DNA of 32,000 nucleotides from the NCBI GenBank assembly GCA_047651235.1, contig CP178758.1, positions 1,470,001 to 1,502,000 on the forward strand. The letters run 5' to 3'. Under the pieces are notes generated by a model. The model had not been told where the DNA came from and did not search any database. It saw only the letters and a program-made list of their open reading frames with translations. This document shows positions 2,645 to 19,675 of the stretch, piece after piece. Numbering within the stretch: position 1 is the stretch's first letter; each line of letters starts with the position of its first letter. The translations under genes and the position numbers were made by a program. The stretch comes from Candidatus Electrothrix yaqonensis. Lineage in GTDB: Bacteria > Desulfobacterota > Desulfobulbia > Desulfobulbales > Desulfobulbaceae.

Positions 2645-5425
2645 TCAACTCTTATCCTGAACATCCTGAAACTGCATGGTGAATTCTCCCTGCTCATCAA
2701 CATCCAACGTTACCCCGGCAGGGAGCTGACCGCCGCTCATCTGGGTAAGAATTTCTCTGGAAAGCCGGGGCAGGACATTGCCGTTCAGGATGTATTCGAT
2801 ATTCCGGGCCCCGGTTTCCACCTCGGTACAGCGGGCCGCGATCTGCTGCACCACCTTGTCGCCCCAGCTGAACTCCATCCTGTTGTTGTTCATGAGCATT
2901 TCGCGCAGACTCTGGAGCTTGATCTCCACAATATTTTCCATAGCATCCCGATCCAAGCTGAAAAAGGGAATCACGGTGGTCCTGGCCAGCAGGGCCGGTT
3001 TGAAATACTGCGAGAGCAGCGGCCGCACCGCCCCCATGACCGCCTCCATCGGCAGGCGGTCCTCCCCGCCGGTCATCTCCTGGATCACATCGGTGCCCAG
3101 GTTGGAGGTGAGGATGATAATGGCATTGCGGAAGCTGATTTCCTTGCCCTCGCCGTCAGTGAGCGTCCCCTTATCAAAGACCTGATAAAACAGGTTCATG
3201 ATATCGATATGCGCCTTTTCCACCTCATCGAGCAGGACAACGCAGTAGGGCATTTTCCGCACTGCCTCGGTGAGCATCCCGCCCTCGCCGAATCCCACAT
3301 AACCGGGAGGAGAACCGATCAGGCGGCTGACTGTATGGCTTTCCTGAAACTCGCTCATATTGATGGCCACCACGCTTTTTTCGCTGCCGAAGATCAGCTC
3401 GGCCAGCGCCAGACCGGTGGCTGTCTTGCCCACCCCGGACGGCCCGGCAAAGAGAAAAACTCCTTGGGGCTGATGCGGATTCCTGATCCCGGCCTTGGCT
3501 GCCCGGATGACCTCTCCCATCGCAGAAAGCGCGTGATCTTGGCCCTTGATCTTGGTCTCTATGATGGATTCAAAATTGACGATATTGTCGGCCTCGTCGC
3601 GCAGCATTCGGCCCAGCGGGATACCGGTCCAGTCAGCAGCCACATGGGCCACAATATCCGGGTTGACCTCGATCTGGATCAGGGGATGTTCGCCCTGCAG
3701 CGCAGATAGGGCTGCATCGGCCTCGGCAAGATGTTGGCGCAGGGTATCAGGAGAAACGGTTTCTTCGGCTTTAGCAGCAGATTTTGAGGACTCTGCGTTC
3801 TCTGGAGAAAATTCAGGTTTATCGGGTTTATCAGACTGAGGCTCCTCAGGAACATCGGTTTCCGCTGTTTCGGGAGGAGGCTCGGTAGCTGCCTGTGCGA
3901 TAGCGTGCACAGCATCGTGCAGTCGGTTGCGCAAATCAACAACCCGGTTTGCCGCCTCCCGCTCCTGCTGCCAGCGTTCTGTCAGGGCCTGCCGCTGTTC
4001 ATCCAGCCTGCTGATTTCCCCGCCGATCTCTGCAAGACGTTCTTGGTCAATCGCTACATTATTCTCCTGATCCCGCAGCATGGCCTGCTGTTCCCGCTCC
4101 AGGGCGGCTATGGAGCGCTCCAAATCTTCAAGGGAAGGCGGCTTGGTAGCCAGATTGATGCTGATCCGGGCACAGGCCGTATCCAGCAGGTCAATGGCTT
4201 TGTCCGGCAGGAACCGGCCGGAAATATAGCGGTCAGCGATTTCGCTTGCGGCCTGCACCGCATCATCCCGGACAATGACCTTATGGGCTTTTTCATAACT
4301 GTCCTTAATGCCGCGCAGGATCAGGGTGGTGGTCTCGGTGTCCGGTTCATCGAGCTTGACCAGCTGGAATCTGCGGGCCAAGGCCGGATCCTTTTCAAAA
4401 TATTTTTTATATTCGGTCCAGGTGGTGGCCGCAATGGTGCGCAGCTCTCCCCGGGCCAGAGCCGGTTTAAGCAGGTTGGCTGCATCGCCGCTGCCCGCCG
4501 CGCCGCCGGACCCCACCAGGGTATGCGCCTCATCAATAAAAAGAATGATCGGAGTTGCCGACTGTTTAATCTCAGTAATTACCCCGTTCAGGCGGTTTTC
4601 AAATTCGCCCTTCATTCCGGCACCGGCCTCCAGCAATCCCATGTCCAGAACCAGCAGGGAGGTTCCCCGGATCGCCTCCGGCACATCGCCCTCAACAATG
4701 CGCCGGGCCAGTCCTTCCACCACAGCGGTCTTGCCGACCCCGGCCTCTCCCACGCAGATGGGATTATTTTTTCGCCGCCGTGCCAGGATATCGATCATCA
4801 GGCGGATTTCTCGATCCCGCCCGAAGACATGATCAATCTTGCCCTGGCGGGCATTTTCGGTAAAGTCTTGGCAGAAACGGGCCAGAAAGCCTTCCTTGCC
4901 GGTCACGCTCTGCTTCCCTTCCTCCCGGATGCGTTCTTCCCTGCTGACAGCCTCCACTGAGGGTTTGGTAATGGTCCAGAATTCTTTCAGCAGATCTTCC
5001 CGGTTGATGGTCCGGAGCAGGTCCATGTACTGACCGGTTGCATAGTAGGCGGGACGGGAAAGCAGGGCGAGGAGCAACGCGCCGGAACGAATCCGCCGAT
5101 CATCCAGATCAATGGAGGCGATCAGCCAGGCCTCTTGGACAAGGTCCAGCAGCATGGGCGAAAACACCGGCTTGCCTGAATTGCCGCCGGTATAATCTTC
5201 CAGCACCTCGTCCAGTTTCTTGCGGACCTGCCCAGCCTCAATGCCGGAATGCTCAAAGATCAGGGGCCAGTCAGCATGAAGTTCGTCGAGCAGTTTGAGC
5301 AGGAGATGTTCAATGGCCACCTCGTAATGGGTCCGGGAAACAGACAGCCCGGCTGCGGCCTGGAGTGCATTGGTACAGAACGGGTTGAGGTGCAGCAGTA
5401 ATCCCTTGATATCGACGATGACCAT
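2645..5425 (-). CDS. tssH: Type VI secretion AAA+ ATPase ClpV/TssH
   Basis: 926-aa ORF with a ClpV-like N-domain. It has two AAA+ modules (Walker A GEAGVGKTA and GPSGVGKTA) and a coiled-coil middle region. An acidic ~50-aa insertion (EPPPETAETDVPEEPQSDKPDKPEF...) lies before the second module. Confidence 0.9.
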   Translation of the reverse strand: MVIVDIKGLLLHLNPFCTNALQAAAGLSVSRTHYEVAIEHLLLKLLDELHADWPLIFEHSGIEAGQVRKKLDEVLEDYTGGNSGKPVFSPMLLDLVQEAWLIASIDLDDRRIRSGALLLALLSRPAYYATGQYMDLLRTINREDLLKEFWTITKPSVEAVSREERIREEGKQSVTGKEGFLARFCQDFTENARQGKIDHVFGRDREIRLMIDILARRRKNNPICVGEAGVGKTAVVEGLARRIVEGDVPEAIRGTSLLVLDMGLLEAGAGMKGEFENRLNGVITEIKQSATPIILFIDEAHTLVGSGGAAGSGDAANLLKPALARGELRTIAATTWTEYKKYFEKDPALARRFQLVKLDEPDTETTTLILRGIKDSYEKAHKVIVRDDAVQAASEIADRYISGRFLPDKAIDLLDTACARISINLATKPPSLEDLERSIAALEREQQAMLRDQENNVAIDQERLAEIGGEISRLDEQRQALTERWQQEREAANRVVDLRNRLHDAVHAIAQAATEPPPETAETDVPEEPQSDKPDKPEFSPENAESSKSAAKAEETVSPDTLRQHLAEADAALSALQGEHPLIQIEVNPDIVAHVAADWTGIPLGRMLRDEADNIVNFESIIETKIKGQDHALSAMGEVIRAAKAGIRNPHQPQGVFLFAGPSGVGKTATGLALAELIFGSEKSVVAINMSEFQESHTVSRLIGSPPGYVGFGEGGMLTEAVRKMPYCVVLLDEVEKAHIDIMNLFYQVFDKGTLTDGEGKEISFRNAIIILTSNLGTDVIQEMTGGEDRLPMEAVMGAVRPLLSQYFKPALLARTTVIPFFSLDRDAMENIVEIKLQSLREMLMNNNRMEFSWGDKVVQQIAARCTEVETGARNIEYILNGNVLPRLSREILTQMSGGQLPAGVTLDVDEQGEFTMQFQDVQDKS

Positions 5426-7598: not shown

Positions 7599-8060
7599 CT
7601 ATTGACACTCCCAGCCCCAATACCCGGCACAGGTCACCTGCGGGATGACCTTGCCGCCGCAGGACTGGTAGCAGTACCGGTATTCCTCGTTGCACTGATC
7701 AAATTTCGGCTCAGGGCAGGGCTCCGTGGTATCCAGACAGGGAGCAACCCCGGCGGCAAGGCAGTTCTCAAGTTTCAGACCGGCCATTTCGTTGCGGTGC
7801 CTGCAGTCCTTCTGGTCAGACTCCAAGTCATCCTTGCAATCCGATCTTTTCTGGGCACACTGCATAATACACATCCGTCCCTGCTCCGTGTCAGGAGGCT
7901 CCAGGGTATAATCGGTCTTGTACACCGGGCCGCAGGCGCTCAGCCCGGCCGCGATCAGTACCGAGATGCCTATGCTCTGCAGAAATCGTCTGCTGCATAT
8001 CCGGCTGAATCTGTTCATTGAATCTGCTGTGTTCATAACTGTGTTCATAACTGTGTTCAT
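7599..8060 (-). CDS. Cysteine-rich putative lipoprotein
   Basis: 153-aa ORF. An SD-like aaggaagg lies 5 nt upstream of the ATG at 8060. A signal sequence ends in the lipobox-like LSAC. The mature part has more than 12 Cys. I recognise no family. Confidence 0.55.
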   Translation of the reverse strand: MNTVMNTVMNTADSMNRFSRICSRRFLQSIGISVLIAAGLSACGPVYKTDYTLEPPDTEQGRMCIMQCAQKRSDCKDDLESDQKDCRHRNEMAGLKLENCLAAGVAPCLDTTEPCPEPKFDQCNEEYRYCYQSCGGKVIPQVTCAGYWGWECQ

Positions 8061-8063
8061 AAC
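8028..8063. repeat. Perfect 12-bp tandem repeat x3 (tgtgttcataac)
   Basis: Read directly from the sequence. On the minus strand each unit encodes MNTV and carries an in-frame ATG (8060, 8048, 8036) at the 5' end of the lipoprotein gene. Confidence 0.9.
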
Positions 8064-8099
8064 ACCCTTCCTTTTATTATTTGTTTATAGCAATAGAGA

Positions 8100-8600
8100 T
8101 TACCTGTTCTGCAGCTTTTCCGTTATCAGATCGTAAAGACAGTTGCTGGTTTCCCGGACAACCTGCACACAATGCCTGCGCGTGCTGTTCGGGTCGTTGC
8201 GGAACGTATGGACAGCTTTCCAGTCCTTCCAGTCCACTCCGGCAATATCAGAGCAGTTGATCCCGCCGTACTGCTCCGTAATTTCTGCAAACTTCTGCAC
8301 CATCGCATGACTGATACCGCCCATCTTCGGATGATTATCCTGCTCAGGTGCTGTCTTTCCCAAAGTGAACCCGATGGCTGCCAGGGCACCGGACAAGGCC
8401 CCGCAGACCTGTCCGCTGCTCCCCATGCCTCCGGCAAAGGGCGCCATCGCCGCAATCAGCTCTGGAGATGGCGCTTTCTCCTGAAAAAGCTCCGCACAGG
8501 CGCAGAGCACGGCCTGGCTGCAGTGGAACCCCTGAGCAAACAGCTCAACGGCTCTGGCCGCCATTCTTTCCCGCTCTGTTGTGATTTTTATTGCTGTCAT
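8100..8600 (-). CDS. C_GCAxxG_C_C family protein
   Basis: 166-aa ORF with HCSQAVLCA near the N-terminus, VCGALSGA (CGAxxG) in the middle, and a C-terminal NCSD/HCVQV Cys pattern. Confidence 0.8.
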   Translation of the reverse strand: MTAIKITTERERMAARAVELFAQGFHCSQAVLCACAELFQEKAPSPELIAAMAPFAGGMGSSGQVCGALSGALAAIGFTLGKTAPEQDNHPKMGGISHAMVQKFAEITEQYGGINCSDIAGVDWKDWKAVHTFRNDPNSTRRHCVQVVRETSNCLYDLITEKLQNR

Positions 8601-8736
8601 TGTTTCTCCTTATCGGCTTTTCTGACTTCCTGAAAAGGGACGTGTTCAACTTAAGTTAAATACATCACTCCGTCGTTTATCTTAACACGTCTTGCCGGAA
8701 AAGCTCAAAGAAGAATTTGTCCCGCAGGAATCGCGG

Positions 8737-8766
8737 CTATTCCTCCTCCGCCTCTTGTTCAGCAGG
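8737..8766 (-). other. Possible ghost of an AI-2E transporter 3' end (stop codon plus acidic tail)
   Basis: The sequence ctattcctcctccgcctcttgttcagcagg aligns to 14315-14356, the last codons plus stop of the transporter CDS. The match is 26/29 aligned positions with one 12-nt gap. Its order relative to the 86-bp repeat is the same as at the intact gene. The sequence is low-complexity, so this is tentative. Confidence 0.3.
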
Positions 8767-8792
8767 TGAAGGCACCAGGATTCGGCCTGCTC

Positions 8793-8878
8793 CTGTTTTA
8801 TTCAGAAGTATGGTGAAATCCCGGCAAAGTGTCAACCTGTTTCTTTGACTTCTTATTTTGTATTGACACAAGGCGGGC
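8793..8878. repeat. 86-bp direct repeat, copy 1 (partner at 15560-15645)
   Basis: Manual alignment gives 82/86 identical positions in the same orientation. Weaker similarity continues ~13 nt to the left. The track ORF starting at 8829 begins inside this repeat. Confidence 0.9.
8807..8835 (-). promoter_or_regulatory. Putative sigma70-like promoter inside repeat copy 1, reading toward the C_GCAxxG_C_C gene
   Basis: On the minus strand: TTGACA (8835-8830), a 17-nt spacer, then CATACT (8812-8807). An inverted repeat GTGTCAA(8829-8835)-N27-TTGACAC(8863-8869) and a third TTGACT box (8845-8850) overlap it. Confidence 0.4.
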
Positions 8879-8957
8879 GGTGTGCTATGTCGTTTTATCA
8901 GGTAATTGTCATTTGCGGAAGGCGGAGCTGAAGATATCTGAAATCGGACCTCATCTC

Positions 8958-10664
8958 ATGATCAGAGTACTGCGAAGAAATAACGAAACCCTCCAGATAG
9001 GCACGTTACAGGACAGGCCCTCTATGAAGTCGGCAGCCCCTTTTGCAGGTTACGAAGCTACAGTTGTTTGTCTTCGTCGCTTTATGCATGATGCCTATAA
9101 TATGACGGTGCTGCGGAAAGTACTGTATGAGGATTCATATCAGTTCGGTATTCATTCACTGAGTGATCAGGAGGTTATTTCTCAAGTCGCCAGGAAGGCT
9201 GTCCGGGGTCAGATATTTATTGCACGGGGAAAAGCGGCTCAATATGGTGGCGGTTCTTCATCTCCTTCGGTGAAAGAGGTTGTACCGGTTGAAGGGAAGA
9301 AGTGGAGCAAGAAAGAGTATGTCAAGTCATTCGTAAAGGAGCATGAGGTTGAGCATTCTGTGCCGCCGGAAGAAAACTGGGTGGAACTCGAACATTGTGT
9401 TGAATATCCGGAAGACTGGAGCGATATAGAACCAGCGTGTGATGTACCTTACACGATTACCTTTGGCGATGGCAGTGTAGATAAAGGTTATCTTGACGAG
9501 AATGGATACGCACGGCATGACGGAATACCACCAGGGCAAGTCACCGTAGAGTACGAAAAGGATGTTGACAAGGAAATAGCGGAACTACACGCACAGTTGA
9601 AAGCCGAGCTCAATAAAATTCTGGAGATAGAAAGAGAAGAGGCTCGGAATTTAGAACAATCTTTGCAGGAAAAAGGCTCCTTCGGCAAGGCGTGGGAGTA
9701 TACAAAGAGCTTTGGTGGAGGAGCCTGGAAGGCTACAAAGGACCTTGCCGAGTTTGCCTATGAAGGATATAAACGCAACCCTATTGTTAACCCAATAGGT
9801 GCGCCATTACTGTGGATCGAGGACTTGAAGAATGGAAAAAAGGTTTACGATCAGCTCGCAGCGATTCCAGATGAGGATATAGAAGCTATTGTAATCTTAC
9901 TTCAGGATGCAGCTACTTACGATATACTTTATGATTTTGCGAAAGATTACATTGCTGCGCAGCACAGCCTCGAATGGAGTGAGACTGCGGGAACCGCAAT
10001 ACCGGAAATAATTATTGCTGTACTTACAGCGGGCATCGGAACTGCTGTAAGCGGCGCATCAAAAGCACGGCATGTCAGCAAACTTCGAAAACTTAAAGGA
10101 TTGTGGCAGAGGCTTGTCAAAGCGCTTAAGCGACGAAGATTTCGTCACAAAAAATCAGGCCCTCATAAAACACGCATTAAGTCAAAGAGTACCCCAACTT
10201 CCGGGGAGAGCCCAAGACGCAAACTGCACACGTCGCCAAAGGGGCCGAGCAGGACGACGCCGAGCAAGGCAAAGGGAGGGAAGCCGCGCGGCGATCGGAC
10301 ACCTGAGACCGGCTCACAGAAACGAAAACACAAGCGCGAGAACGAATCGGCCAACACGCTTGCTGACGCCGGTTATGATATCGACCAAGGACCTCACAAG
10401 AAACCCAACGGCAAGAAGCCGGACTACAAGATCGAAGACGAGTATTTCGACTGCTTGGCACCGGATACGGACAACGTCGATCAAGTACGAAAAGGCATCT
10501 CAAGAAAAGTAAACTCGGAACAGGCGGACCGTATCGTGCTGAACTTGGATGACACGAGCTTGGAACCGAGCGACATCAGCGAGATGCTGCGGCGAAAGCC
10601 AAAAAATGGTCTTAAGGAAGTGATCGGCGTCAAGAACGGAAAGATCACGCAGATATTTCCATAA
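8958..10664 (+). CDS. Polymorphic-toxin-like protein with a C-terminal CdiA-CT (tRNase-type)-like domain
   Basis: The last 108 aa (10338-10661) fit the pattern I recall for CdiA C-terminal tRNase-type toxin domains: ENESANTLADAGYDIDQGP..KKPDYKIEDEYFDCLAPDTDNV...QADRIVLNLDD...GLKEVIGVKNGKITQI. A hydrophobic TAGIGTAVSGA segment and a ~75-aa Lys/Arg/Pro/Ser-rich linker precede it. The start is uncertain: 8958 or 9024, and 8829 lies inside the repeat. Confidence 0.6.
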   Translation: MIRVLRRNNETLQIGTLQDRPSMKSAAPFAGYEATVVCLRRFMHDAYNMTVLRKVLYEDSYQFGIHSLSDQEVISQVARKAVRGQIFIARGKAAQYGGGSSSPSVKEVVPVEGKKWSKKEYVKSFVKEHEVEHSVPPEENWVELEHCVEYPEDWSDIEPACDVPYTITFGDGSVDKGYLDENGYARHDGIPPGQVTVEYEKDVDKEIAELHAQLKAELNKILEIEREEARNLEQSLQEKGSFGKAWEYTKSFGGGAWKATKDLAEFAYEGYKRNPIVNPIGAPLLWIEDLKNGKKVYDQLAAIPDEDIEAIVILLQDAATYDILYDFAKDYIAAQHSLEWSETAGTAIPEIIIAVLTAGIGTAVSGASKARHVSKLRKLKGLWQRLVKALKRRRFRHKKSGPHKTRIKSKSTPTSGESPRRKLHTSPKGPSRTTPSKAKGGKPRGDRTPETGSQKRKHKRENESANTLADAGYDIDQGPHKKPNGKKPDYKIEDEYFDCLAPDTDNVDQVRKGISRKVNSEQADRIVLNLDDTSLEPSDISEMLRRKPKNGLKEVIGVKNGKITQIFP

Positions 10665-10752
10665 GCCCTTGCGATACCTTTGACGCAGCTCGATCTCATT
10701 TATGACGAGTGAAGGATCCGGCAAACCTTTTTTGCAAACGGGAGCAGACACA

Positions 10753-11166
10753 ATGGCAATTGATTATTTTCTTACGCTTCACCGGTTCGGCTCGGACGCC
10801 AACGAGGTGCGGGTTCGGGAGTTCCTGCTGCACGAATTCCCGCTTACCGATCATGTGGATACCGGGATGCTGACCGGACCCGGCCTGAGCGTGAACGTGT
10901 TTATCGATGACGACAACGTTGACGGTACGACCGAGGGACCGAAGCACCCAGATCTGGTAATCAGCTTTCGCATTTCGAAGCATGAACTAGATACCCACCT
11001 TGGGTACCAAGGCATGCGGCGTATCGTAGATCGGGTAGTACGCTCGTTCGATGTGGAACTGCGTGTTGGTGATGAATTTGATCAGTATTTCTACTTGACG
11101 AAGACGGTCGGAAAAGTGGTAACCGAGCACCGGGACCATGACTTTTGGACGGTGGGCACCGATTAG
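10753..11166 (+). CDS. Putative cognate immunity protein
   Basis: 137-aa ORF starting 89 nt after the toxin stop, with a GGGAG box 8 nt upstream of the ATG at 10753. The call is positional only, and I recognise no family. Confidence 0.45.
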   Translation: MAIDYFLTLHRFGSDANEVRVREFLLHEFPLTDHVDTGMLTGPGLSVNVFIDDDNVDGTTEGPKHPDLVISFRISKHELDTHLGYQGMRRIVDRVVRSFDVELRVGDEFDQYFYLTKTVGKVVTEHRDHDFWTVGTD

Positions 11167-11209
11167 GGAATAAATAGGGGACATTTATGCATCATATTCC
11201 GGCAAGATC

Positions 11210-11238
11210 AAATCAAAAGGGTCAGACTCTATTGATTT
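11210..11238. repeat. Island palindrome copy A (aaatcaaaagggtcagactctattgattt)
   Basis: The outer arms AAATCAA/TTGATTT are reverse complements. The copy sits between the immunity gene stop (11166) and the stop of the convergent vapC fragment (11241). Confidence 0.85.
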
Positions 11239-11240
11239 TC

Positions 11241-11501
11241 TTACGGCCCGAAAGGATCGATTAACTCAATCCCACAACTCTCAAAGTCACGTATGTTGCG
11301 GGTCGCCAAACTCAGATGGCCAGCTTGAGCAACAGCGGCGATTTGACCGTCAGGAAGACTCATGGGACGGCCCTTCTCTTTGCACCGGCCCATAATTTTG
11401 GCATAAACACGAGCTGCGGACTTATCAAACACAATGATACGCCCTGCAAAGCCTTGGGCGATAAATTACTCAAAGCGTGTCTCAAGTATATCTTTTTCCA
11501 T
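11241..11501 (-). pseudogene. 5'-truncated VapC/FitB-like PIN toxin fragment with an in-frame stop
   Basis: The translation is MEKDILETRFE*FIAQGFAGRIIVFDKSAARVYAKIMG...DGQIAAVAQAGHLSLATRNIRDFESCGIELIDPF. This matches only the C-terminal half of FitB/VapC proteins. The N-terminal PIN residues are absent and a TAA stop occurs at codon 12. Confidence 0.6.
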
Positions 11502-11720
11502 AATAGTATCCTACAGGAATGAGAAGTACTGTCAATACTTCTCCCTCTGTGTTCTGCCATTCTCCTTCTCTCCCGCCGCTAGTTCGGTCGATGGAAAAAT
11601 CAATAGGGTCATCTAAGTAAACAGGAAAAGCACGGTTGCTTGCATAATGATGAAAAATGCATTACTCTCAAGAGAGGCGTTAAATAACAGGTTGAAAATA
11701 CGTTTTTAGGGAGAAATGCC

Positions 11721-11972
11721 ATGCCATCTTTACAAGTGAGAGAGTTGCCGGTAAATATTTATCACCGTTTGCAAAAAAGGGCGAAAGCGGAACATCGCAG
11801 TCTTGCTCAGGAGGCTATCGTTACCCTGGCAAGAGGCATGGAGACCGCTGTTTCCCATAAAAATCGCAGGAGAAAATTGCTTCGGACTATTGCTGAACAA
11901 ACATGCTTTGTAGGCGAAAAAATGGCATCTGTGGATCCTGTTCAACTTGTCAGGGAGGATCGTGAGCGATGA
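11721..11972 (+). CDS. FitA/Arc-type ribbon-helix-helix antitoxin (VapB-like)
   Basis: 83-aa ORF with the N-terminus MPSLQVRELPVNIYHRLQKRAKAEHRSLAQEA, typical of FitA-like antitoxins. Its stop overlaps the downstream PIN gene start (ATGA). Confidence 0.8.
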   Translation: MPSLQVRELPVNIYHRLQKRAKAEHRSLAQEAIVTLARGMETAVSHKNRRRKLLRTIAEQTCFVGEKMASVDPVQLVREDRER

Positions 11973-12370
11973 TCGCTGTCCTTGATGTAAGTGCGGCAGT
12001 GGAAGTTGTTCTGCAACGCCCTATAGCAGGGCAGTTGAATAGGTATCTCAGTGAGGCGGACTGGGTGATCGCACCGACTCTGTTTATTTCGGAAGTCACG
12101 AATGTTTTTTGGAAATATCAGCGGTTGACAGACCTTTCTTTGCAGGACTGTGAGCGAGGCCTTGAACAAGCTATTGCTCTGCCTGATGATTTTATTGATG
12201 AACATGATTTCTTTCGAGAGGCTTTCAAGCTATCATCTACCTTGGGTCACAGTGTTTATGATATTATGTATTTGATCGCGGCTCGAAGAAATAATGCTGT
12301 CCTTTTAACCTTAGATAAAAAATTAAGCAGAACTGCCAAGGAATGCTCCATTGAGGTAGCTGAATTGTAG
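11969..12370 (+). CDS. vapC: PIN-domain toxin VapC
   Basis: 133-aa ORF with IAVLDVSAAVE near the N-terminus and YDIMYLIAA...LLTLDKKL at the C-terminus. It is translationally coupled to the upstream antitoxin. Confidence 0.8.
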   Translation: MIAVLDVSAAVEVVLQRPIAGQLNRYLSEADWVIAPTLFISEVTNVFWKYQRLTDLSLQDCERGLEQAIALPDDFIDEHDFFREAFKLSSTLGHSVYDIMYLIAARRNNAVLLTLDKKLSRTAKECSIEVAEL

Positions 12371-12374
12371 AACG

Positions 12375-12403
12375 AAATCAAAAGAGTTAGACTCGATTGA
12401 TTT
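12375..12403. repeat. Island palindrome copy B (aaatcaaaagagttagactcgattgattt)
   Basis: It starts 4 nt after the vapC stop. A second ttgattt follows at 12411-12417. Confidence 0.85.
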
Positions 12404-12454
12404 AAAAATATTGATTTCTCTCCCCCTTGGATGCCGTACCTGCGGTGGCGCTCC

Positions 12455-12483
12455 TTGACAAACCCAACGACCAAGCATATGCT
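12455..12483 (+). promoter_or_regulatory. Putative promoter/operator of the second vapBC operon
   Basis: TTGACA (12455-12460), a 17-nt spacer, then TATGCT (12478-12483). A perfect 10-bp palindrome AGCATATGCT (12475-12484) overlaps the -10 box, as expected for an autoregulated TA operator. Confidence 0.5.
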
Positions 12484-12533
12484 TGAGTATATGCAGGCAA
12501 CTCCGATTCCGCTTAAAACAAAGGGAGGCTCAT

Positions 12534-12770
12534 ATGCAGACAGAACGACACGTCCGCCTGTTCCGTAACGGAAGCAATCAGGCAATTCGTATTCCGCGTG
12601 AATTCGAGTTGGAAGGAAATGAAGCCGTCATCCGCAAAGAAGGTAACAGGTTAATCATAGAACCGGTGATAAAAACCGGCTTGGCCGCCCTGCTGGCCTC
12701 CTGGAAGCCCCTTGATGAGGATTTCCCGGAAATAGACGATACTCCTGTCACACCGGAAGATATCTTTTGA
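12534..12770 (+). CDS. vapB: AbrB/SpoVT-type antitoxin VapB
   Basis: The ATG at 12534 is preceded by AAGGGAGG. The sequence MQTERHVRLFRNGSNQAIRIPREFEL is typical of VagC/VapB antitoxins. The track start at 12483 (TTG) is probably too far upstream. Confidence 0.8.
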   Translation: MQTERHVRLFRNGSNQAIRIPREFELEGNEAVIRKEGNRLIIEPVIKTGLAALLASWKPLDEDFPEIDDTPVTPEDIF

Positions 12771-12771
12771 A

Positions 12772-13182
12772 ATGAACGAATACAGATACCTGCTGGATAC
12801 CAATATCCTTTCAGACATCATAAAAAATCCCGCCGGATCTGTCGCACAAAAGGTGACCCGTCCTCATATTGAACCGGCCTGCTGCACCAACCTGATCGTG
12901 GCCTGTGAGCTGCGCTACGGAGCCTGTAAAAAAGGGTCTCCCCGACTCACGGCAAGAATCGAACAGCTCCTGAACACCCTGCCAGTACTTCCTCTGGAAG
13001 AAAATGTCGCCCATCAATACGGGGAAATCAGGACTACCTTGGAGCGTGTCGGTCAGCCCATCGGGGGCAACGACCTGTTGATCGCCGCTCATGCCCTTAC
13101 CCTGCAGCTGACCGTTGTTACCGCAAACCTGCGAGAATTTACTCGGGTTCCGGGTCTGGCGGTGGAGAATTGGCTGGATTGA
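12772..13182 (+). CDS. vapC: PIN-domain toxin VapC
   Basis: 136-aa ORF starting 1 nt after the antitoxin stop. It has YLLDTNILSD, GGNDLLIAAHAL and VVTANLREF motifs. Confidence 0.85.
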   Translation: MNEYRYLLDTNILSDIIKNPAGSVAQKVTRPHIEPACCTNLIVACELRYGACKKGSPRLTARIEQLLNTLPVLPLEENVAHQYGEIRTTLERVGQPIGGNDLLIAAHALTLQLTVVTANLREFTRVPGLAVENWLD

Positions 13183-13211
13183 GAGGCACCGGAAACCGAC
13201 AGGGCCGAGGA

Positions 13212-13345
13212 ATGACCATGCACAGAATAATCCATGACAATCTGGATAAAATTACAGCATTGTGTAAACAGCATAATGTCAGGTCGTTGTTTGCATTCGG
13301 CTCGAAAATCAAAGGCTCAGACTCGATTGATTTCAACACAATAAT
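13212..13345 (+). pseudogene. N-terminal fragment of a MNT-type nucleotidyltransferase (type VII TA antitoxin family)
   Basis: The translation (MT)MHRIIHDNLDKITALCKQHNVRSLFAFGS matches the N-terminus of minimal nucleotidyltransferases up to the catalytic GS motif. Similarity then ends inside palindrome copy C, and no HEPN partner is present. Confidence 0.5.
13316..13343. repeat. Island palindrome copy C (aaatcaaaggctcagactcgattgattt)
   Basis: It has a 1-nt deletion relative to copies A, B and D. Similarity to copy A extends ~12 nt to the left (attcggc vs attccggc). Similarity to copy D extends ~12 nt to the right (gatttSaacacRa). Confidence 0.85.
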
Positions 13346-13549
13346 AGATCGAAATGGGAGCCGTACGTTTTTTGTGACCACTCCATCCGCCTGCGCAATG
13401 ACGATTATTCACAGGCCGGGGCCTGTTTCGTTACCATCAGCACCCAACACCAGGAGTACCTACTCACTGAGATCTCTTGACGCTGTGAATGAAATTGAAT
13501 ATTATATATTCATAGTTCTTCCCCGCCTCAAAAAAACAGGAGGACGAAA

Positions 13550-13786
13550 ATGAAAACAGTGACTATGCGGGTTGATGATGCGGTCTACCGGATGATAAAA
13601 ACAGCAGCGGATGGGCAGAAGAGGAACCTTTCCAATTTCATAGAATTTGCCGTGATGCAGTATCTTTCCTCTGTACAGTATGTCGATAATGATGAAATGG
13701 ATGAAATACTCCGGGATACCGAGCTGGTACAGAGTTTAAAGGACGGCATCAAAGAGCTTGAACGAGGAGAGTACACTCTTGTTTGA
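13550..13786 (+). CDS. Ribbon-helix-helix (CopG-like) antitoxin
   Basis: 78-aa ORF preceded by an aggagg box. The sequence TMRVDDAVYRMIKTAADGQKRNLSNFIEFAV is typical of RHH antitoxins. It overlaps the downstream RelE/ParE gene. Confidence 0.75.
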   Translation: MKTVTMRVDDAVYRMIKTAADGQKRNLSNFIEFAVMQYLSSVQYVDNDEMDEILRDTELVQSLKDGIKELERGEYTLV

Positions 13787-14048
13787 GTTCAGGATTGCGG
13801 AGTCCAAAAAATTTGAGAAACGCAAAAAGAAGATTGATCTGTCTCTGTATGCGAAGATAAAGAATATTGTGTATCCTCAGCTTCGAAAAAATCCCTACTT
13901 CGGAGCGAATATCAAAAAACTGAAAGGAGACCTCTCAGGATACTATCGCTTCAGGATTGGGAATTACCGCCTTTTTTATCTTATTGAGGAGGAAAAAGTG
14001 ATTGTTCTTGTCGTGGATATTCAACATCGGCAGAATGCCTATAAATAA
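13779..14048 (+). CDS. RelE/ParE-family toxin
   Basis: It carries the YYRFRIGNYRLFYLIEEEKVIVLVVDIQHRQNAY signature. I prefer the TTG start at 13779, 9 nt after GAGGAG, over the track start at 13758. Either start overlaps the antitoxin 3' end. Confidence 0.75.
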   Translation: MFEFRIAESKKFEKRKKKIDLSLYAKIKNIVYPQLRKNPYFGANIKKLKGDLSGYYRFRIGNYRLFYLIEEEKVIVLVVDIQHRQNAYK

Positions 14049-14079
14049 TAAGTTTCCCTATTTATCCAGTCCGATTTTA

Positions 14080-14108
14080 TGATCAAAAGGGTCAGACTTG
14101 ATTGATTT
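14080..14108. repeat. Island palindrome copy D (tgatcaaaagggtcagacttgattgattt)
   Basis: It lies 32 nt after the RelE/ParE stop. The left arm is slightly degenerate (gatcaa instead of aatcaa). About 200 nt of non-coding DNA follows before the convergent transporter gene. Confidence 0.8.
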
Positions 14109-14314
14109 GAACACGACAACAAACAATATAGACCCCATCGTTGATATTGATGACGCTGGCCCTTTGCCCTGCGCAAATAAGCCTTCCATCGGGCGAAATC
14201 TGACCGACCGAATCTCAACCTGTTTACGGACTTCGGCTTCAAAAAACTCTTCAACACCCAAAACCCGCAGCCCTAAAAGTTACTTTTCCACGCCCTTAAT
14301 ATCAATACGGTTTC

Positions 14315-15481
14315 CTATTCTCCCTCCGCCTCCTGTTCAACCTGTTGCTCAGCAGATACATCTTCCTCTATAACCTCTTCCGGGGCACTGTCTTCCATGC
14401 CTTGAGACAGGCGGGCCAGTGAACCCACTTCCGGCAGGTACTCCTGAAAGGTATCACCGTAAATCTCCCAGATGGTGATAAAGAGCGCCGCGATGATCGG
14501 CCCGATGATAATGCCGAGCACGCCGAACAGGGTGATGCCGCCAAGGGTACCGAACAGGACAAACAGATCATGCATTTCCGTATCCTGGCCCACAAGCCTG
14601 GGCCGGAGCAGATTGTCCAGATTCCCGGCCACGGCGCCGCAGAGCACACCAAGGATAACCGCCCCGGACACATCACCGCCGACTGCAAGGATAATCAGGG
14701 CAGGCACCCAGACGATAGGTGTTCCCACAGCCGGAATAGTCGAGAGCACCGCCATGATGGTTCCCCAGAAGGCTGCTCCCGGTATTTCAGCCAGAAAAAA
14801 CGCAAACCCGCATATTCCGCCCTGCAGCATACCAATAATCAGGGTGCTTTTCAGCGTCGCCCTGGTCACCGAGGTGAAACGAAGCAACAGACGTTCCTCA
14901 TCTTCATGCGTCATCGGCAGATAATACAAGATTTTTTTCAGCAGCACATCGCCCATTGTCATGAAATAGAACATTACATAGAGCATGATCACTATGTTGA
15001 ACAGGGCGTTGAGCGTGACTTTGGTCAGCGAGGACAAAGAGTTGATCAGTAGGTTAGAGACAAGTCCGACAACCTGTCCTGCTTTTTCCAGGATCGTATC
15101 ACGGTAGGGCAGCACCTCCTTATAATACGGCATTTTGGCTATATATTCCGAAAGAACACCGGGTTCTTTAATAAAAGATTCAATCCAGGGGGTGACAGAC
15201 TGCGCCACATGCACGGCCTGATTGATCACCACGCCGATGAGAAATCCCAAGGGAACAAGAATCAGGCAGACAATCGCGATAATAATCAGGATGGAGGCAA
15301 GGTTCTCCCGGTCATGAAGGCGTCGGGTCAGCCGGTTGTGGATGGGTGCGGTCATGGCGGAAAATAGCCCGGCCATAAAAATCGCCATCAGGAACTGCCG
15401 GATCATGGTCAGGAACAGGGCTGAAATCGCCGTGACCATGAGCAGGAGGACTATCGTGTTGACCTGCTGGTGCTTCACCAT
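14315..15481 (-). CDS. AI-2E family transporter (PerM/UPF0118-like permease)
   Basis: 388-aa polytopic membrane ORF with a family-typical layout (…LKSTLIIGMLQG…, GTPIVWVPA, LLRPRLVG) and an acidic C-terminal tail. Confidence 0.8.
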   Translation of the reverse strand: MVKHQQVNTIVLLLMVTAISALFLTMIRQFLMAIFMAGLFSAMTAPIHNRLTRRLHDRENLASILIIIAIVCLILVPLGFLIGVVINQAVHVAQSVTPWIESFIKEPGVLSEYIAKMPYYKEVLPYRDTILEKAGQVVGLVSNLLINSLSSLTKVTLNALFNIVIMLYVMFYFMTMGDVLLKKILYYLPMTHEDEERLLLRFTSVTRATLKSTLIIGMLQGGICGFAFFLAEIPGAAFWGTIMAVLSTIPAVGTPIVWVPALIILAVGGDVSGAVILGVLCGAVAGNLDNLLRPRLVGQDTEMHDLFVLFGTLGGITLFGVLGIIIGPIIAALFITIWEIYGDTFQEYLPEVGSLARLSQGMEDSAPEEVIEEDVSAEQQVEQEAEGE

Positions 15482-15559
15482 ATTCTGTTCCTCTGTTGCC
15501 GGATTCCGGAGAGACGGCGAGGTATTGCAGCATCGGTCCGGCCGCTGTCCGGTCCGCTT

Positions 15560-15645
15560 CTGTTTTATTCAGAAGTATGGTGAAATTCCGGCAAAGTGTC
15601 AACCTGTTTCTTTGACTCCTCATTTTGTATTGACACAAGGCAGGC
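15560..15645. repeat. 86-bp direct repeat, copy 2 (partner at 8793-8878)
   Basis: 82/86 identical to copy 1. It lies 78 nt upstream of the transporter start codon on the minus strand. Confidence 0.9.
15574..15602 (-). promoter_or_regulatory. Putative sigma70-like promoter inside repeat copy 2, reading toward the AI-2E transporter
   Basis: It has the same TTGACA-17-CATACT arrangement as copy 1 (15602-15597 and 15579-15574). A GG-N10-GC (caGGttgacactTTGCc) sigma54-like alternative overlaps it. GTGTCAA-N27-TTGACAC sits at 15596-15636. Confidence 0.4.
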
Positions 15646-15649
15646 TTGA

Positions 15650-15889
15650 CGCTCCCTGCCTGTACACCCTGTACAGAATGAGAAAGTCCGGGCCAATGCC
15701 TCCATTGACTGAACCGTCAAGGAGAATGTCCGGGCAAAGCTGAAGGTGATGGTCAAGCGCACTCTGCGGAAATACCGTTATCCGCCGGACATGCAGAAGC
15801 TGGCCACCGAGACTGTGCTGAAACAGGCGGGGAAGATTGCCGAAAAACTGGCCGCAAACCCCGTACTGAAGCCGACCTTGGCAGGATGA
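15650..15889 (+). pseudogene. hsdR: C-terminal stub of a type I restriction enzyme R subunit (HsdR)
   Basis: The translation is ...[59 protein letters not shown]. This matches the conserved HsdR C-terminus (..DW..E.VRAKL...VKR.LRKYGYPPD). TGA occupies the conserved Trp position. The frame opens only 5 nt after the 86-bp repeat, and no upstream hsdR sequence is present. Confidence 0.65.
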
Positions 15890-16101
15890 GCAAGGTTAGC
15901 GGGGGGAGCGGGATAAAATGGGTTTCAGATGATCAGAGCGGAATGCTGTTGTCGGTTTGTCGGTATTGTTCGAAAATATGAGTAATTGAAAGTAAATATA
16001 TTTTACGGTTAATTTCAACTGGCTGTTTTTGCGTTGGCGGATCTTAAAACACCTAATGGTTTGATAATAATTCTAATAAAATATTAAAAATCAAGATTCA
16101 T

Positions 16102-16140
16102 GTGCGGAATGTCGGGATAAGACCGCACTTTTACTTTTGA
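16102..16140 (+). terminator. Hairpin plus T-run (possible orphan terminator)
   Basis: The stem is gtgcgg (16102-16107) paired with ccgcac (16123-16128), followed by ttttactttt. It lies in an AT-rich non-coding stretch downstream of the hsdR stub. Confidence 0.3.
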
Positions 16141-16273
16141 TCGTACCCTTCCGGGGGTGTGATTAAAAATGCGGTTTGCTCGATTATCCGGTGTATGATT
16201 GTCCATATTTCTGTTACAGTGATTTCTTTGCGAGAAACAGTAACACTTTACTTTACTTACTTTGTCAGCCTTT

Positions 16274-17500
16274 ATGTCCTTTGAACGCTTTGTCAGCTTC
16301 CGCTATCTGCGGGCTAAACGCAAACAGAAGTTTATCTCTCTGATCTCGGTCATCTCCGTACTCGGCGTGGCCGTGGGCGTGATGGCTCTGATTGTTGTCC
16401 TGTCCGTGTACACCGGCTTTACCGAGGGGCTGCGGGATCAGATCATCGGGATCAATGCCCATGTGCTGGTGAACCGGCCCGGCAGCAGCATCGGGGAGCC
16501 CTACCGCCTGCAAGAGGAGGTGGAGGCGGTGGACGGGGTGACAGCGGCAACGCCGTATATTTACGCCCAGGCCCTGATCACCTCCGGCCAGTCATCTTCA
16601 GGAATCGCTGTCCGGGGCATTGACCCGCTCGGTGCGGGTAAGGTTCTTAATCTGGAGAAGAAAATGCTCAGCGGCAGCCTGACCGATCTTGCCGATGATG
16701 CCGGGCTGCCCCTGATTGTTCTCGGTCGGGATCTGGCAGCGCAGCTGCGGGTGGATATAGGCTGGAAGATCAGGCTGCTGTCGCCCAACGGTACTCTTAC
16801 CCCGATGGGGGTGCTGCCTAGGGTGCAGACCTGTGTGGTCGGCGGTATTTTTGCCACCGGCATGTATGAATACGATTCCTCAATGGGCTTTGTCAGTCTG
16901 GAGACCGCCCGGAGCCTTGCCGGTCTTGATGGAGACCGCGTACACGGCCTTGAACTGCGGGTGGCATATGTTGATAAGGCGGACAGTATTGCTGCTACTG
17001 TCCGGCAGCGCGTCGGGCAACATTATCTGGTACGGGACTGGATGCAGATGAACCGGAATCTGTTTGCCGCTCTGAAACTGGAAAAGATCGGTATTTTTAT
17101 CGCCCTGGATCTTATAATTCTGGTTGCATCCCTGAATATCATCAGTGCCCTGGTGATGGTGGTGATGGAAAAAAATAAAGACATCGCTATTCTGAAATCA
17201 ATGGGTGCCACCACCGGCAGCATTATGCGGATTTTCTTCTATCAGGGCGCCGTAGTCGGTTTTACAGGTACTCTGCTCGGTATCGGTGGCGGAATTGGTC
17301 TCTGTTCCCTGCTCAAACGCTATAAAATTATTGAGCTGCCCAGCAATGTTTATCCCATGTCCACCCTGCCGGTCAAGGTGGTGCCTGCGGATGTCATTGT
17401 TATCGCCATTTCCGCCATTGTCATTACTCTGCTTGCGACTCTGTATCCTTCCTGGAAGGCATCAGGGGTCCGGCCTGCTGATGCCCTGACCTATGAATAG
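16274..17500 (+). CDS. Lipoprotein-releasing system permease (LolC/LolE family, FtsX-like)
   Basis: The N-terminus MSFERFVSFRYLRAKRKQKFISLISVISVLGVAVGV is typical of LolC/E. It has a large periplasmic domain and a C-terminal FtsX-type 3-TM bundle. I prefer the ATG at 16274 to the TTG at 16262. Confidence 0.85.
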   Translation: MSFERFVSFRYLRAKRKQKFISLISVISVLGVAVGVMALIVVLSVYTGFTEGLRDQIIGINAHVLVNRPGSSIGEPYRLQEEVEAVDGVTAATPYIYAQALITSGQSSSGIAVRGIDPLGAGKVLNLEKKMLSGSLTDLADDAGLPLIVLGRDLAAQLRVDIGWKIRLLSPNGTLTPMGVLPRVQTCVVGGIFATGMYEYDSSMGFVSLETARSLAGLDGDRVHGLELRVAYVDKADSIAATVRQRVGQHYLVRDWMQMNRNLFAALKLEKIGIFIALDLIILVASLNIISALVMVVMEKNKDIAILKSMGATTGSIMRIFFYQGAVVGFTGTLLGIGGGIGLCSLLKRYKIIELPSNVYPMSTLPVKVVPADVIVIAISAIVITLLATLYPSWKASGVRPADALTYE

Positions 17501-18191: not shown

Positions 18192-18242
18192 AAATTGAAA
18201 TTGCAATCAAGGGCTGATTTTCCGGTTTAGAGAGAGGTAACA

Positions 18243-18939: not shown

Positions 18940-19675
18940 GCCGTTGACGAAGCTGTCTTATAACTTCATCTTCGTTTACATCTCGACGTGGAAGAATTGA
19001 CTTGAGTAATGTTGTTATATCAGCGCAACTCAATAACGGGACACCGACTTGATGGTATAATCGTTGCTCGACCATAAACAACATGGCCATCATGACCATA
19101 GTCATATGATGATGCCAAGCCAGCCATCCCCGAGCCCTTAGCCTTAAGACAACGTTCCTTGTCATCCGTCCAGCTTTTCGGTAAATACAGCCGACAGTCG
19201 ATCGGCGTTGAAAAGCGACCATATCCCAAAGTTGCAAACACTACTACTTGACAGTTGTCGGTTTTACCAAGCTGCCCGCACCATTGACGAGAAACCCCAA
19301 CAGACATTTTACCCTTTTTGGGTATCCCGGATTCATCAATAAAAAGAGCGCTATCTTCCTTTCCTCCAAAAATGTTATCCGCATCTTTAGCTACTTGGTT
19401 GTTTACAGGACGCCAATCCCAGTTCGAGTCGGAAAGAAAATACTGGAGGGGCTCATATTTAACGCCCGGAACCTTTTCCTCCATACGTTCCATGTTTTTT
19501 TGTCAGCCTGGAATAAACCTTTCAAGTATTGGAATGCTTTATCTGACAAACTTACCGTATGTCTCTTAAAAAAATGATGATATCTTTCGTGAAAAGACGT
19601 AAGTTGCCGGGCGATGCCGGTCAACTCAAAGAATTTGTCATGGGGACTTCTTTTTTCGGGGCTGGGAGCGTTCAT
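18863..19675 (-). mobile_element. Decayed IS701-family insertion sequence (transposase pseudogene)
   Basis: Three minus-strand ORF pieces lie in three frames (19675-19403, 19493-19020, 19237-18863). They carry IS701-like motifs (YLKGL, LQYFLSDSNWDW, GVSRQWCGQLGKTDNCQVVVF, RGWLAWHHH). The frames meet near 19135-19145, where roughly 200 aa of the DDE core are missing. Confidence 0.7.

Follow-up and report, generated by a model that had tools for sequence, protein, structure and literature searches.

Short repeats between the toxin–antitoxin cassettes of Candidatus Electrothrix yaqonensis are most probably solo terminal inverted repeats of a TIRYT-type transposon

Transposases of TnpA_Y1 subclass 2.1, which have a median length of 238 amino acids and the signatures NHVH, W[EQ] and YIELNP, correspond, according to Quentin et al. 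(2018; PMC6006769), to RAYT group 1 of Bertels and to the transposases that Di Nocera et al. (2013; PMC3733652) had named 'TIRYT'. The latter authors reported that TIRYT genes are bracketed by terminal inverted repeats (TIRs), forming 'TIRtrons', that many TIRs share GGGGWSAS and may overlap gene ends, and that TIR families are moderately abundant, with single, dimeric or grouped copies. RAYT group 1 is the most widely distributed of the RAYT groups, occurs on plasmids and may transfer horizontally (Bertels et al., 2017; PMC5581495). The searchable literature yielded no experimental work on TIRYTs. In the present study, we analysed a 29-nt imperfect palindrome that lies between toxin–antitoxin (TA) modules in a 32,000-nt stretch of Candidatus Electrothrix yaqonensis (contig CP178758.1, positions 1,470,001 to 1,502,000; hereafter the window, numbered from its first letter). 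The results suggest that the motif is most probably the TIR of a TIRYT/TIRtron, solo copies of which invaded the spacers of a TA array secondarily and do not serve there as sites of cassette exchange.

One genome per species was scanned with the pattern ATCAAAN{3,4}TYAGACTNNATTGATTT, which fixes most of the paired positions and hence yields a locus sample biased as to pairing. The scan recovered 94 loci, which belong to Alpha-, Beta-, Gamma- and Zetaproteobacteria, a Desulfocapsaceae metagenome-assembled genome, Candidatus Electrothrix aarhusensis and E. marina, at a density of one to four exact-pattern loci per species-representative genome, Mb-scale contigs included. The 28-nt consensus AATCAAAGGGGTCAGACTCGATTGATTT, which starts (A)AATCAAAG, was identical in 57 of 174 copies. 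When ORFs (open reading frames) within 1.5 kb of the motif were clustered, the dominant family was Pfam Y1_Tnp (IS200-like), present at 20 loci, and an inverted pair of copies bracketed an ORF for a HUH/Y1 transposase of about 240 amino acids in 20 of the 94 loci, the whole forming a unit of about 805 bp. The motif, described in an earlier note on this DNA as specific to the island, is thus the TIR of a widespread Y1-transposase element. A RAYT-type gene, for which the same note had suggested a search, accompanies the motif in other genomes, but no such gene was found in the 32-kb window.

The anatomy of the unit, measured on ten full-length examples, was uniform in most respects. The distance from the 5' TIR to the ATG was 47–55 nt in nine units and 185 nt in the tenth, the transposase ORF was 236–243 amino acids long in nine, and the size of the whole unit was 801–813 bp in seven. 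The 3' TIR overlapped the end of the ORF by 16 nt in seven units and by 25 nt in two more, and the repeat itself encodes the transposase C-terminus ..INRV-stop, often KINRV (e.g. L011, L035, L060, L065, L080 and L082; loci are designated by L numbers). The transposases were mutually 56–90% identical, while the repeat was near-invariant to the base. NHVH, LWEGRY and YIELNP were present in an alignment of 12 of these proteins, the family scored 79.7 bits against NCBIfam REP_Tyr_transpos (cut-off, 80), and the TIR core in the consensus, GGGGTCAG, fits GGGGWSAS. Plasmid-borne relatives (50–57% identity) had co-varying TIRs with a shared GGGTCAGAG core, namely TCAAAGGGTCAGAGTTGTTGATTTT on a Pseudoalteromonas plasmid (57% identity) and AATAACTGGGGTCAGAGCAAATTAAA on an Iodobacter plasmid (50% identity); the exact TIR was absent from the plasmid collection. 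Nor was the exact 28-nt TIR found in the searchable literature or in the supplements of PMC3733652 and PMC6006769, a full-text search with the 11-mer core returning only unrelated eukaryotic and primer matches.

The motif thus agrees with TIRYTs/TIRtrons in the transposase that it brackets, with its length and its three signatures, in the GGGGWSAS-compatible core, in the overlap of the 3' repeat with the gene end, in a low to moderate copy number, with copies solo, dimeric or clustered, and in a patchy yet wide taxonomic spread that includes plasmids. It differs in that the copies in the window are orphans, with no transposase gene in the 32 kb, and are concentrated in a TA array of a cable bacterium. 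The canonical REP (repetitive extragenic palindrome)/REPIN–RAYT systems of Escherichia coli and Pseudomonas likewise consist of short imperfect palindromes, intergenic and often just 3' of genes, which bracket a Y1 transposase (domesticated in REP systems) and occur as inverted doublets; such doublets of the motif were found at L018, L026, L053, L069 and Deefgea loci, and none in the window. However, the motif has no GT[AG]G foot at either end, its copy number is probably far lower (one to four exact-pattern loci per genome, against about 100 or more copies of REPs), and REPs are lineage-specific, whereas the sequence of the motif is common to several bacterial classes. With IS200/IS605 insertion sequences (IS608, ISDra2) the unit shares its compactness and hairpin ends that are presumably recognized as single-stranded DNA (ssDNA) by a HUH/Y1 enzyme, but the TIRYT transposase belongs to another class (longer, with Y---NP in place of Y---Q), the repeats form an inverted pair instead of lying on one strand, and there is no tnpB.

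The nearest ORFs on both sides of the motif at the 94 loci, 176 in all, were also surveyed. The commonest downstream neighbour was the Y1 transposase (16 of 79), and upstream neighbours included PhoH, pilin, peptidase S41, MFS, KdpD, ResB, TamB and similar proteins, while TA families were rare (Phd, three; HicA, one; SymE, one; HTH_3, two). The copy in E. marina lies between two ORFs, one of which is putatively ResB-like. Elsewhere the motif has no general tie to TA genes, and the enrichment beside them envisaged by the earlier note did not appear. The motif resides in ordinary intergenic regions of many genomes, which comes close to the condition, a generic REP element, under which that note would have regarded its own reading as refuted, though each genome has few copies.

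Three or four copies of the repeat form tandem runs beside the transposase gene in L085 (1459–1825), L060 (6509–6604) and L189 (1108–1240); in the Methylophaga-like L085 an identical terminator-like hairpin follows each copy, and a repeat run on the Pseudoalteromonas plasmid has a period of about 30 nt. In L190 (Iodobacter fluviatilis plasmid pl1, 5004–5708), a mobilizable plasmid, a TIRYT element with its own TIRs adjoins a gene for a HipA toxin, which shows one route of horizontal spread for the TIRYT class.

The window contains four solo copies of the repeat, all on the plus strand: copy A at 11210–11238 (AAATCAAAAGGGTCAGACTCTATTGATTT; two changes relative to the 28-nt consensus), copy B at 12375–12403 (AAATCAAAAGAGTTAGACTCGATTGATTT), copy C at 13305–13333 (AAAATCAAAGGCTCAGACTCGATTGATTT; one G missing in the core) and copy D at 14080–14108 (TGATCAAAAGGGTCAGACTTGATTGATTT; three changes). 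The number, the common orientation and the starts of A, B and D had been given correctly in the earlier note, which placed the third copy at 13316; with start-to-start distances of 1165, 930 and 775 bp, the first of its unit lengths stands and the other two (941 and 766 bp) require correction. The number of chance matches to the motif expected from dinucleotide-preserving and block shuffles of the window was 0.00. A Hamming scan allowing up to seven mismatches found no further full copy in the 32 kb, in agreement with the note, but an exact left half-copy (AATCAATAGGGTCA) at 11598–11611 on the plus strand, which ends at the hairpin apex 14 nt 5' of the vapBC-1 block, had been overlooked. On inspection only, the weak echo that the note had mentioned, the plus-strand sequence AATCAAGGGCTGATTTT at 18205–18221, which lies 13 nt past the lolD stop and was not detected by the mismatch scans, may represent a copy that has collapsed internally (AATCAAGGG|CTGATTTT). 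The core variants in the window are slightly degenerate (AGGGTCAG, AGAGTTAG and GGCTCAG), and copies A, B and D share with L105, L087, L136 and the half-copies an Electrothrix subtype that reads AAAAGGG where the consensus has AAAGGGG.

As ssDNA, the consensus forms an imperfect hairpin with a 7-bp A/T outer stem, an inner stem of 4–5 bp and a 3-nt loop; the pairing of the outer arms AAATCAA/TTGATTT and the inner stem had been correctly recognized from the sequence. Copies A and B folded well as ssDNA (z = −3.7) and formed stable RNA hairpins (z = −3.1 and −2.3, respectively), but C and D folded no better than shuffled sequences either as ssDNA (z about −1) or as RNA. In copy A, G8A together with G20T produces a compensatory A–T pair, and in copy B, G10A converts a G–T pair into an A–T pair, also compensatory. 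An Rfam scan of positions 8000–16500 of the window at E ≤ 1 gave no match.

The copies lie in a stretch of about 5.6 kb between an AI-2E permease gene, whose homologues in named Electrothrix genomes are 75–81% identical, and a C_GCAxxG_C_C gene. This stretch, approximately 8762–14314, is a strain-specific island, because the C_GCAxxG_C_C and Aq_678 genes stand immediately after the permease gene both in E. communis (CP130629) and in an ENA contig; the motif was absent from 12–21 kb at these two island-less loci. The island is headed by a polymorphic toxin gene with a C-terminal CdiA_C domain (8958–10664, plus strand; 568 amino acids), in whose N-terminal approximately 500 residues Pfam found no secretion or delivery domain, and its paired candidate immunity gene (10753–11166, plus strand). 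There follow copy A, 44 nt past the immunity-gene stop; a convergent PIN fragment of 63 amino acids (11241–11432, minus strand), the remnant of a PIN gene, whose stop lies 2 nt from copy A; the half-copy; the vapBC-1 block (11625–12370 from promoter to stop, plus strand; FitA-like RHH antitoxin and PIN toxin); copy B, 4 nt past the vapC-1 stop, with a stuttered ATTGATTT on its 3' side at 12409–12416; and the vapBC-2 block (12424–13185, plus strand; MazE/AbrB antitoxin and PIN toxin; predicted promoter, 12455–12483). The order continues with a 29-codon 5' fragment of an MNT nucleotidyltransferase antitoxin gene (13218–13304, plus strand); copy C, at the end of this fragment and 122 nt past the vapC-2 stop; a fragment of a different, RAYT-like Y1 transposase; the RHH-ParE block (13475–14052, or 13410 as start, plus strand; RHH, 13550–13786; ParE, 13779–14048; predicted promoter, 13477–13505); copy D, 31 nt past the ParE stop; and an N-terminal fragment of a PDDEXK_2 (Rpn-like) gene (14196–14273, plus strand), recognized by homology to full genes in related loci. 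Copies at the module ends, as claimed earlier, were thus found at every module junction of the window.

In other Electrothrix contexts the cassettes recur at 84–98% identity as discrete promoter-to-stop blocks. The vapBC-1 block was found in five other contexts with the same ends each time, and it occurs in the TA island of E. laxa (L102), the region upstream of a type VI secretion system (T6SS) vgrG cluster (L103–L105), L106 and L107. Behind a Rhs-WHH toxin and SUKH immunity gene in L191 the order is ParE, then vapBC-2, and behind a PAAR toxin and TsiV in L195 it is vapBC-2, ParE, MNT-HepT. L136 is a variant of the window array with the same vapBC-1 to vapBC-2 order, in which copy B is swapped for 156 nt with two repeats of another, GGGGACAG type. 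The ParE toxin was 100% identical to a protein of Candidatus Electrothrix sp. YB6; exact-sequence look-ups gave no record for the RHH antitoxin and, for VapB-1, only contigs with the window-type arrangement. The array is truly modular and strain-variable, like the orphan toxin/immunity and TA arrays behind contact-dependent inhibition (CDI), Rhs and T6SS toxins, which it resembles in its CdiA_C, Rhs-WHH and PAAR toxin/immunity heads and in an order that differs between strains; unlike a conserved part of such arrays, however, the motif is present in a strain-dependent manner.

The repeat is dispensable for this reordering. No full or half-copy was found in the 7 kb of L195, where vapBC-2 is joined to the RHH-ParE promoter within 1 nt, the vapBC-1 blocks of L102, L106 and L107 have no motif, and no counterpart of copy D follows the homologous ParE genes in L191, L195 and L196. 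L191 has only a half-copy, 9 nt past the immunity gene, followed by a sequence that resembles the one after the half-copy in the window (TCTA..AAGTAAA). In L105, by contrast with these loci, a full inverted pair lies just 5' of vapBC-1. The repeats are thus most probably not cassette-defining sites, because the same cassettes shuffle without them, as in L195. The earlier proposal of a cassette array is correct as regards the reordering of cassettes among Electrothrix strains, whereas the data do not call for the motif as the shuffling site.

Several points of rearrangement nevertheless coincide with copies. The window and L136 are homologous from exactly 11211, the start of copy A, onwards; left of this point, the place of the toxin/immunity pair is taken in L136 by a vapC-2-like gene, another GGGGACAG repeat and a stuttered half-copy. 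In L103–L105 the first approximately 13 nt of the repeat follow the vapBC-1 block, after which the sequence is unrelated. Truncated copies in the 94 loci were mostly left halves (partial copies of 12–16 nt: left, 54; right, 15), whose ends cluster at GGGGTC(A)|, the hairpin apex, and stuttered left halves 5' of full copies were common in other loci. Three or four of 12 distinct breakpoints fell on or within 5 nt of a copy, an overlap with P = 0.004–0.014 relative to the whole array and with P = 0.10–0.17, not significant, relative to spacers only. The comparison of relatives at the motif boundaries thus revealed absence of the island, reordering of cassettes and some breakpoints on copies, but no significant enrichment within spacers. 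The pattern of breakpoints and truncations fits breakage or template switching at the hairpin, though the statistics are weak, and it is possible that the repeats are locally involved in breakage.

The reading of the earlier note is that the motif is a dedicated recombination site, attC-like or comparable to the junction sequences of orphan toxin arrays, through which TA cassettes are inserted, excised and exchanged. The presence of a copy in one orientation at every junction, a vapBC-1/vapBC-2 junction that consists almost wholly of motif-derived sequence, homologies to other strains that begin or end at a copy or at the apex inside it, and the copies on both sides of vapBC-1 in L105 all speak for this explanation. 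Nevertheless, we consider it unlikely: L195 was rearranged without any copy, vapBC-1 stands without the motif in three loci, the vapBC-1/vapBC-2 junction of L136 holds different repeats, the breakpoint overlap is not significant under the spacer-only null, and elsewhere the motif brackets a Y1 transposase gene or sits between housekeeping genes. Integron attC/CALIN arrays also have short structured repeats 3' of promoterless or small cassettes and commonly carry TA cassettes as cargo, but the motif is 29 nt long compared with 55–140 nt, has no RYYYAAC/GTTRRRY R''/R' cores and is accompanied by no IntI, and the cassettes in the window are self-promoted and move without it. The earlier note had rightly observed that the motif is not attC and that no recombinase is present; Pfam found no tyrosine recombinase or integron integrase among the annotated large ORFs of the window. 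A Xer/dif-like core site (11 + 6 + 11 bp) with successive integrations, as in IMEX arrays or pdif modules, would explain the 28-bp length, the 6-bp centre set between two 11-bp arms that are palindromic in part (noted on inspection) and the direct repeats that bracket each module. It is highly improbable in view of the several dispersed loci per genome, the absence of any GC-skew switch in the window and an associated gene that encodes a Y1 transposase and not a Xer-type enzyme. To our knowledge, the motif resembles no known dif sequence.

Co-option of the copies as RNA hairpins in 3' untranslated regions that stabilize or terminate TA transcripts, like some REPs, would fit the co-orientation of all four with the upstream gene, the distance of 4–44 nt from the stop in three of them (122 nt in C) and the stable RNA folds of A and B, and REPs are reported to be located mostly downstream of genes (PMC3733652). 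It seems quite unlikely, however, since C and D fold no better than shuffles, the stem is A/U-rich, a terminator scan called no copy, homologous cassettes function without the motif, and the orientation relative to the upstream ORF in other genomes was the same in 53 cases and opposite in 45. The earlier note had also offered the possibility that the copies derive from MNT genes that have decayed, or from a hotspot within such genes, which the position of copy C right after the MNT fragment and one frame of the motif reading KGSDSIDF, similar to the MNT sequence SDIDLLV, might suggest. This possibility has next to no probability. The MNT fragment shares 85% identity with the initial 87 nt of the MNT gene in L195 (BLASTP against the L103 MNT, E = 7e-4), and the homology stops at 13304, the edge of copy C, beyond which the intact L195 gene goes on FGS|VCTDTFGKKSDIDLLV with unrelated DNA; there is no MNT sequence beside A, B and D, and the motif is conserved base for base in dozens of non-MNT contexts. 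The comparison with the intact gene at the copy C edge refutes the idea.

Considering these results, we propose the following scenario, in which the copies are solo TIRs of a TIRYT element and do not define or exchange cassettes. The repeats most likely invaded dispensable spacers of a horizontally acquired TA array, plus one MNT gene. Mobilization would have been in trans, by a Y1 transposase acting on single-stranded hairpin DNA, a mode of action proposed for REP/RAYT systems and shown for IS200/IS605, and decay and local breakage at the hairpins, perhaps at the apex, would have followed. Several observations weigh against this scenario. No TIRYT gene was found in the window by Pfam or by tblastn with 12 TIRYT proteins (best E, 0.085). 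The four and a half copies in 2.9 kb are a striking local excess over the one to four exact-pattern loci per genome, and in approximately 130 kb of other Electrothrix DNA the full or near-full copies numbered roughly three. Plain random invasion does not account for this excess; possible causes are local hopping of copies from an element since lost, recurrent cycles of breakage and repair, and hitch-hiking with cassettes. Furthermore, all four copies point the same way as their upstream genes, and breakpoints coincide exactly with copies (11211, 12383 and 13304), which fits an active junction role better than passive residence.

We also entertain, as a doubtful extension, the idea that the repeats are portable break-and-rejoin points that remodel TA arrays behind polymorphic toxin genes in cable bacteria. 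Genes would then be cut at the repeat edge, apex-truncated half-copies would be left behind, and repeat-flanked cassettes might move in trans as cargo of non-autonomous elements. If the repeats do cause breakpoints, they would provide a mechanism for the remodelling of defence and addiction gene arrays, at present only a possibility.

On the TIRYT reading, an apparently new cassette-junction signal belongs to a class of mobile DNA that is known but has received little study, of which the present family is a clean, well-conserved example with a 28-nt hairpin TIR, a unit of about 805 bp and a stop codon inside the TIR. The near-identity of this TIR across bacterial classes makes it a good substrate for the first biochemistry on TIRYT transposases. 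In addition, the comparison shows that TA cassettes with their own promoters form arrays behind the CdiA, Rhs and PAAR toxin genes of Electrothrix, and that these arrays vary between strains.

Further remnants were observed in and around the array. Relative to L136 (565–1042), the window has lost 478 nt at 11486–11488, with no repeat at the deletion junction; the lost DNA probably carried the N-terminal PIN part and the antitoxin of the minus-strand gene, and its loss would have left the 63-residue PIN fragment at 11241–11432. The RAYT-like fragment between copies C and D (13352–13477, plus strand), which lies 18 nt 3' of copy C, represents the N-terminus of a Y1 transposase of a second type. 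Its phmmer matches (E, 3e-7 to 1e-4) carry HUH motifs, one of them hitting NCBIfam REP_Tyr_transpos at 2e-12; it contains ...RLRNDDYSQAGACFVTISTQ..., and a diverged version of the fragment lies 3' of the half-copy in L191, at about 4600–4700 of that locus. Pfam and NCBIfam gave nothing on the short MNT, RAYT-like and PDDEXK fragments themselves. No intact Y1 transposase gene is present in the window, which contains a DDE_5 transposase fragment (19020–19493; Pfam) and a C-terminal fragment of a type I restriction HsdR (T1RH-like_C; 15746–15889).

Host sequence is duplicated on the two sides of the island. The 3' end of the permease gene recurs as a 25-nt copy (8737–8761) that is 88% identical to 14315–14339, a 96-nt copy of the permease promoter region (8783–8878) is 93% identical to 15550–15645, and the ancestral spacer toward the C_GCAxxG_C_C gene adjoins the left copy and not the intact permease gene. 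This looks like either integration by recombination at the permease 3' end or tandem duplication with loss of one gene body.

A second short repeat with a GGGGACAG core, also compatible with GGGGWSAS (e.g. ATAAATAGGGGACATTTAT and TTAGGGGACAGACCACGTTTTTAAG), was noted in the window at 11176–11195, in L136 at 243–268, 1943–1975 and 2034–2058, in L106 at 666, and in L068 and L013. In Electrothrix it occupies TA-cassette junctions, and L136 and L106 have it in place of copy B. Gammaproteobacterial loci contain similar sequences, and the repeat possibly represents the TIR of a further TIRYT lineage.

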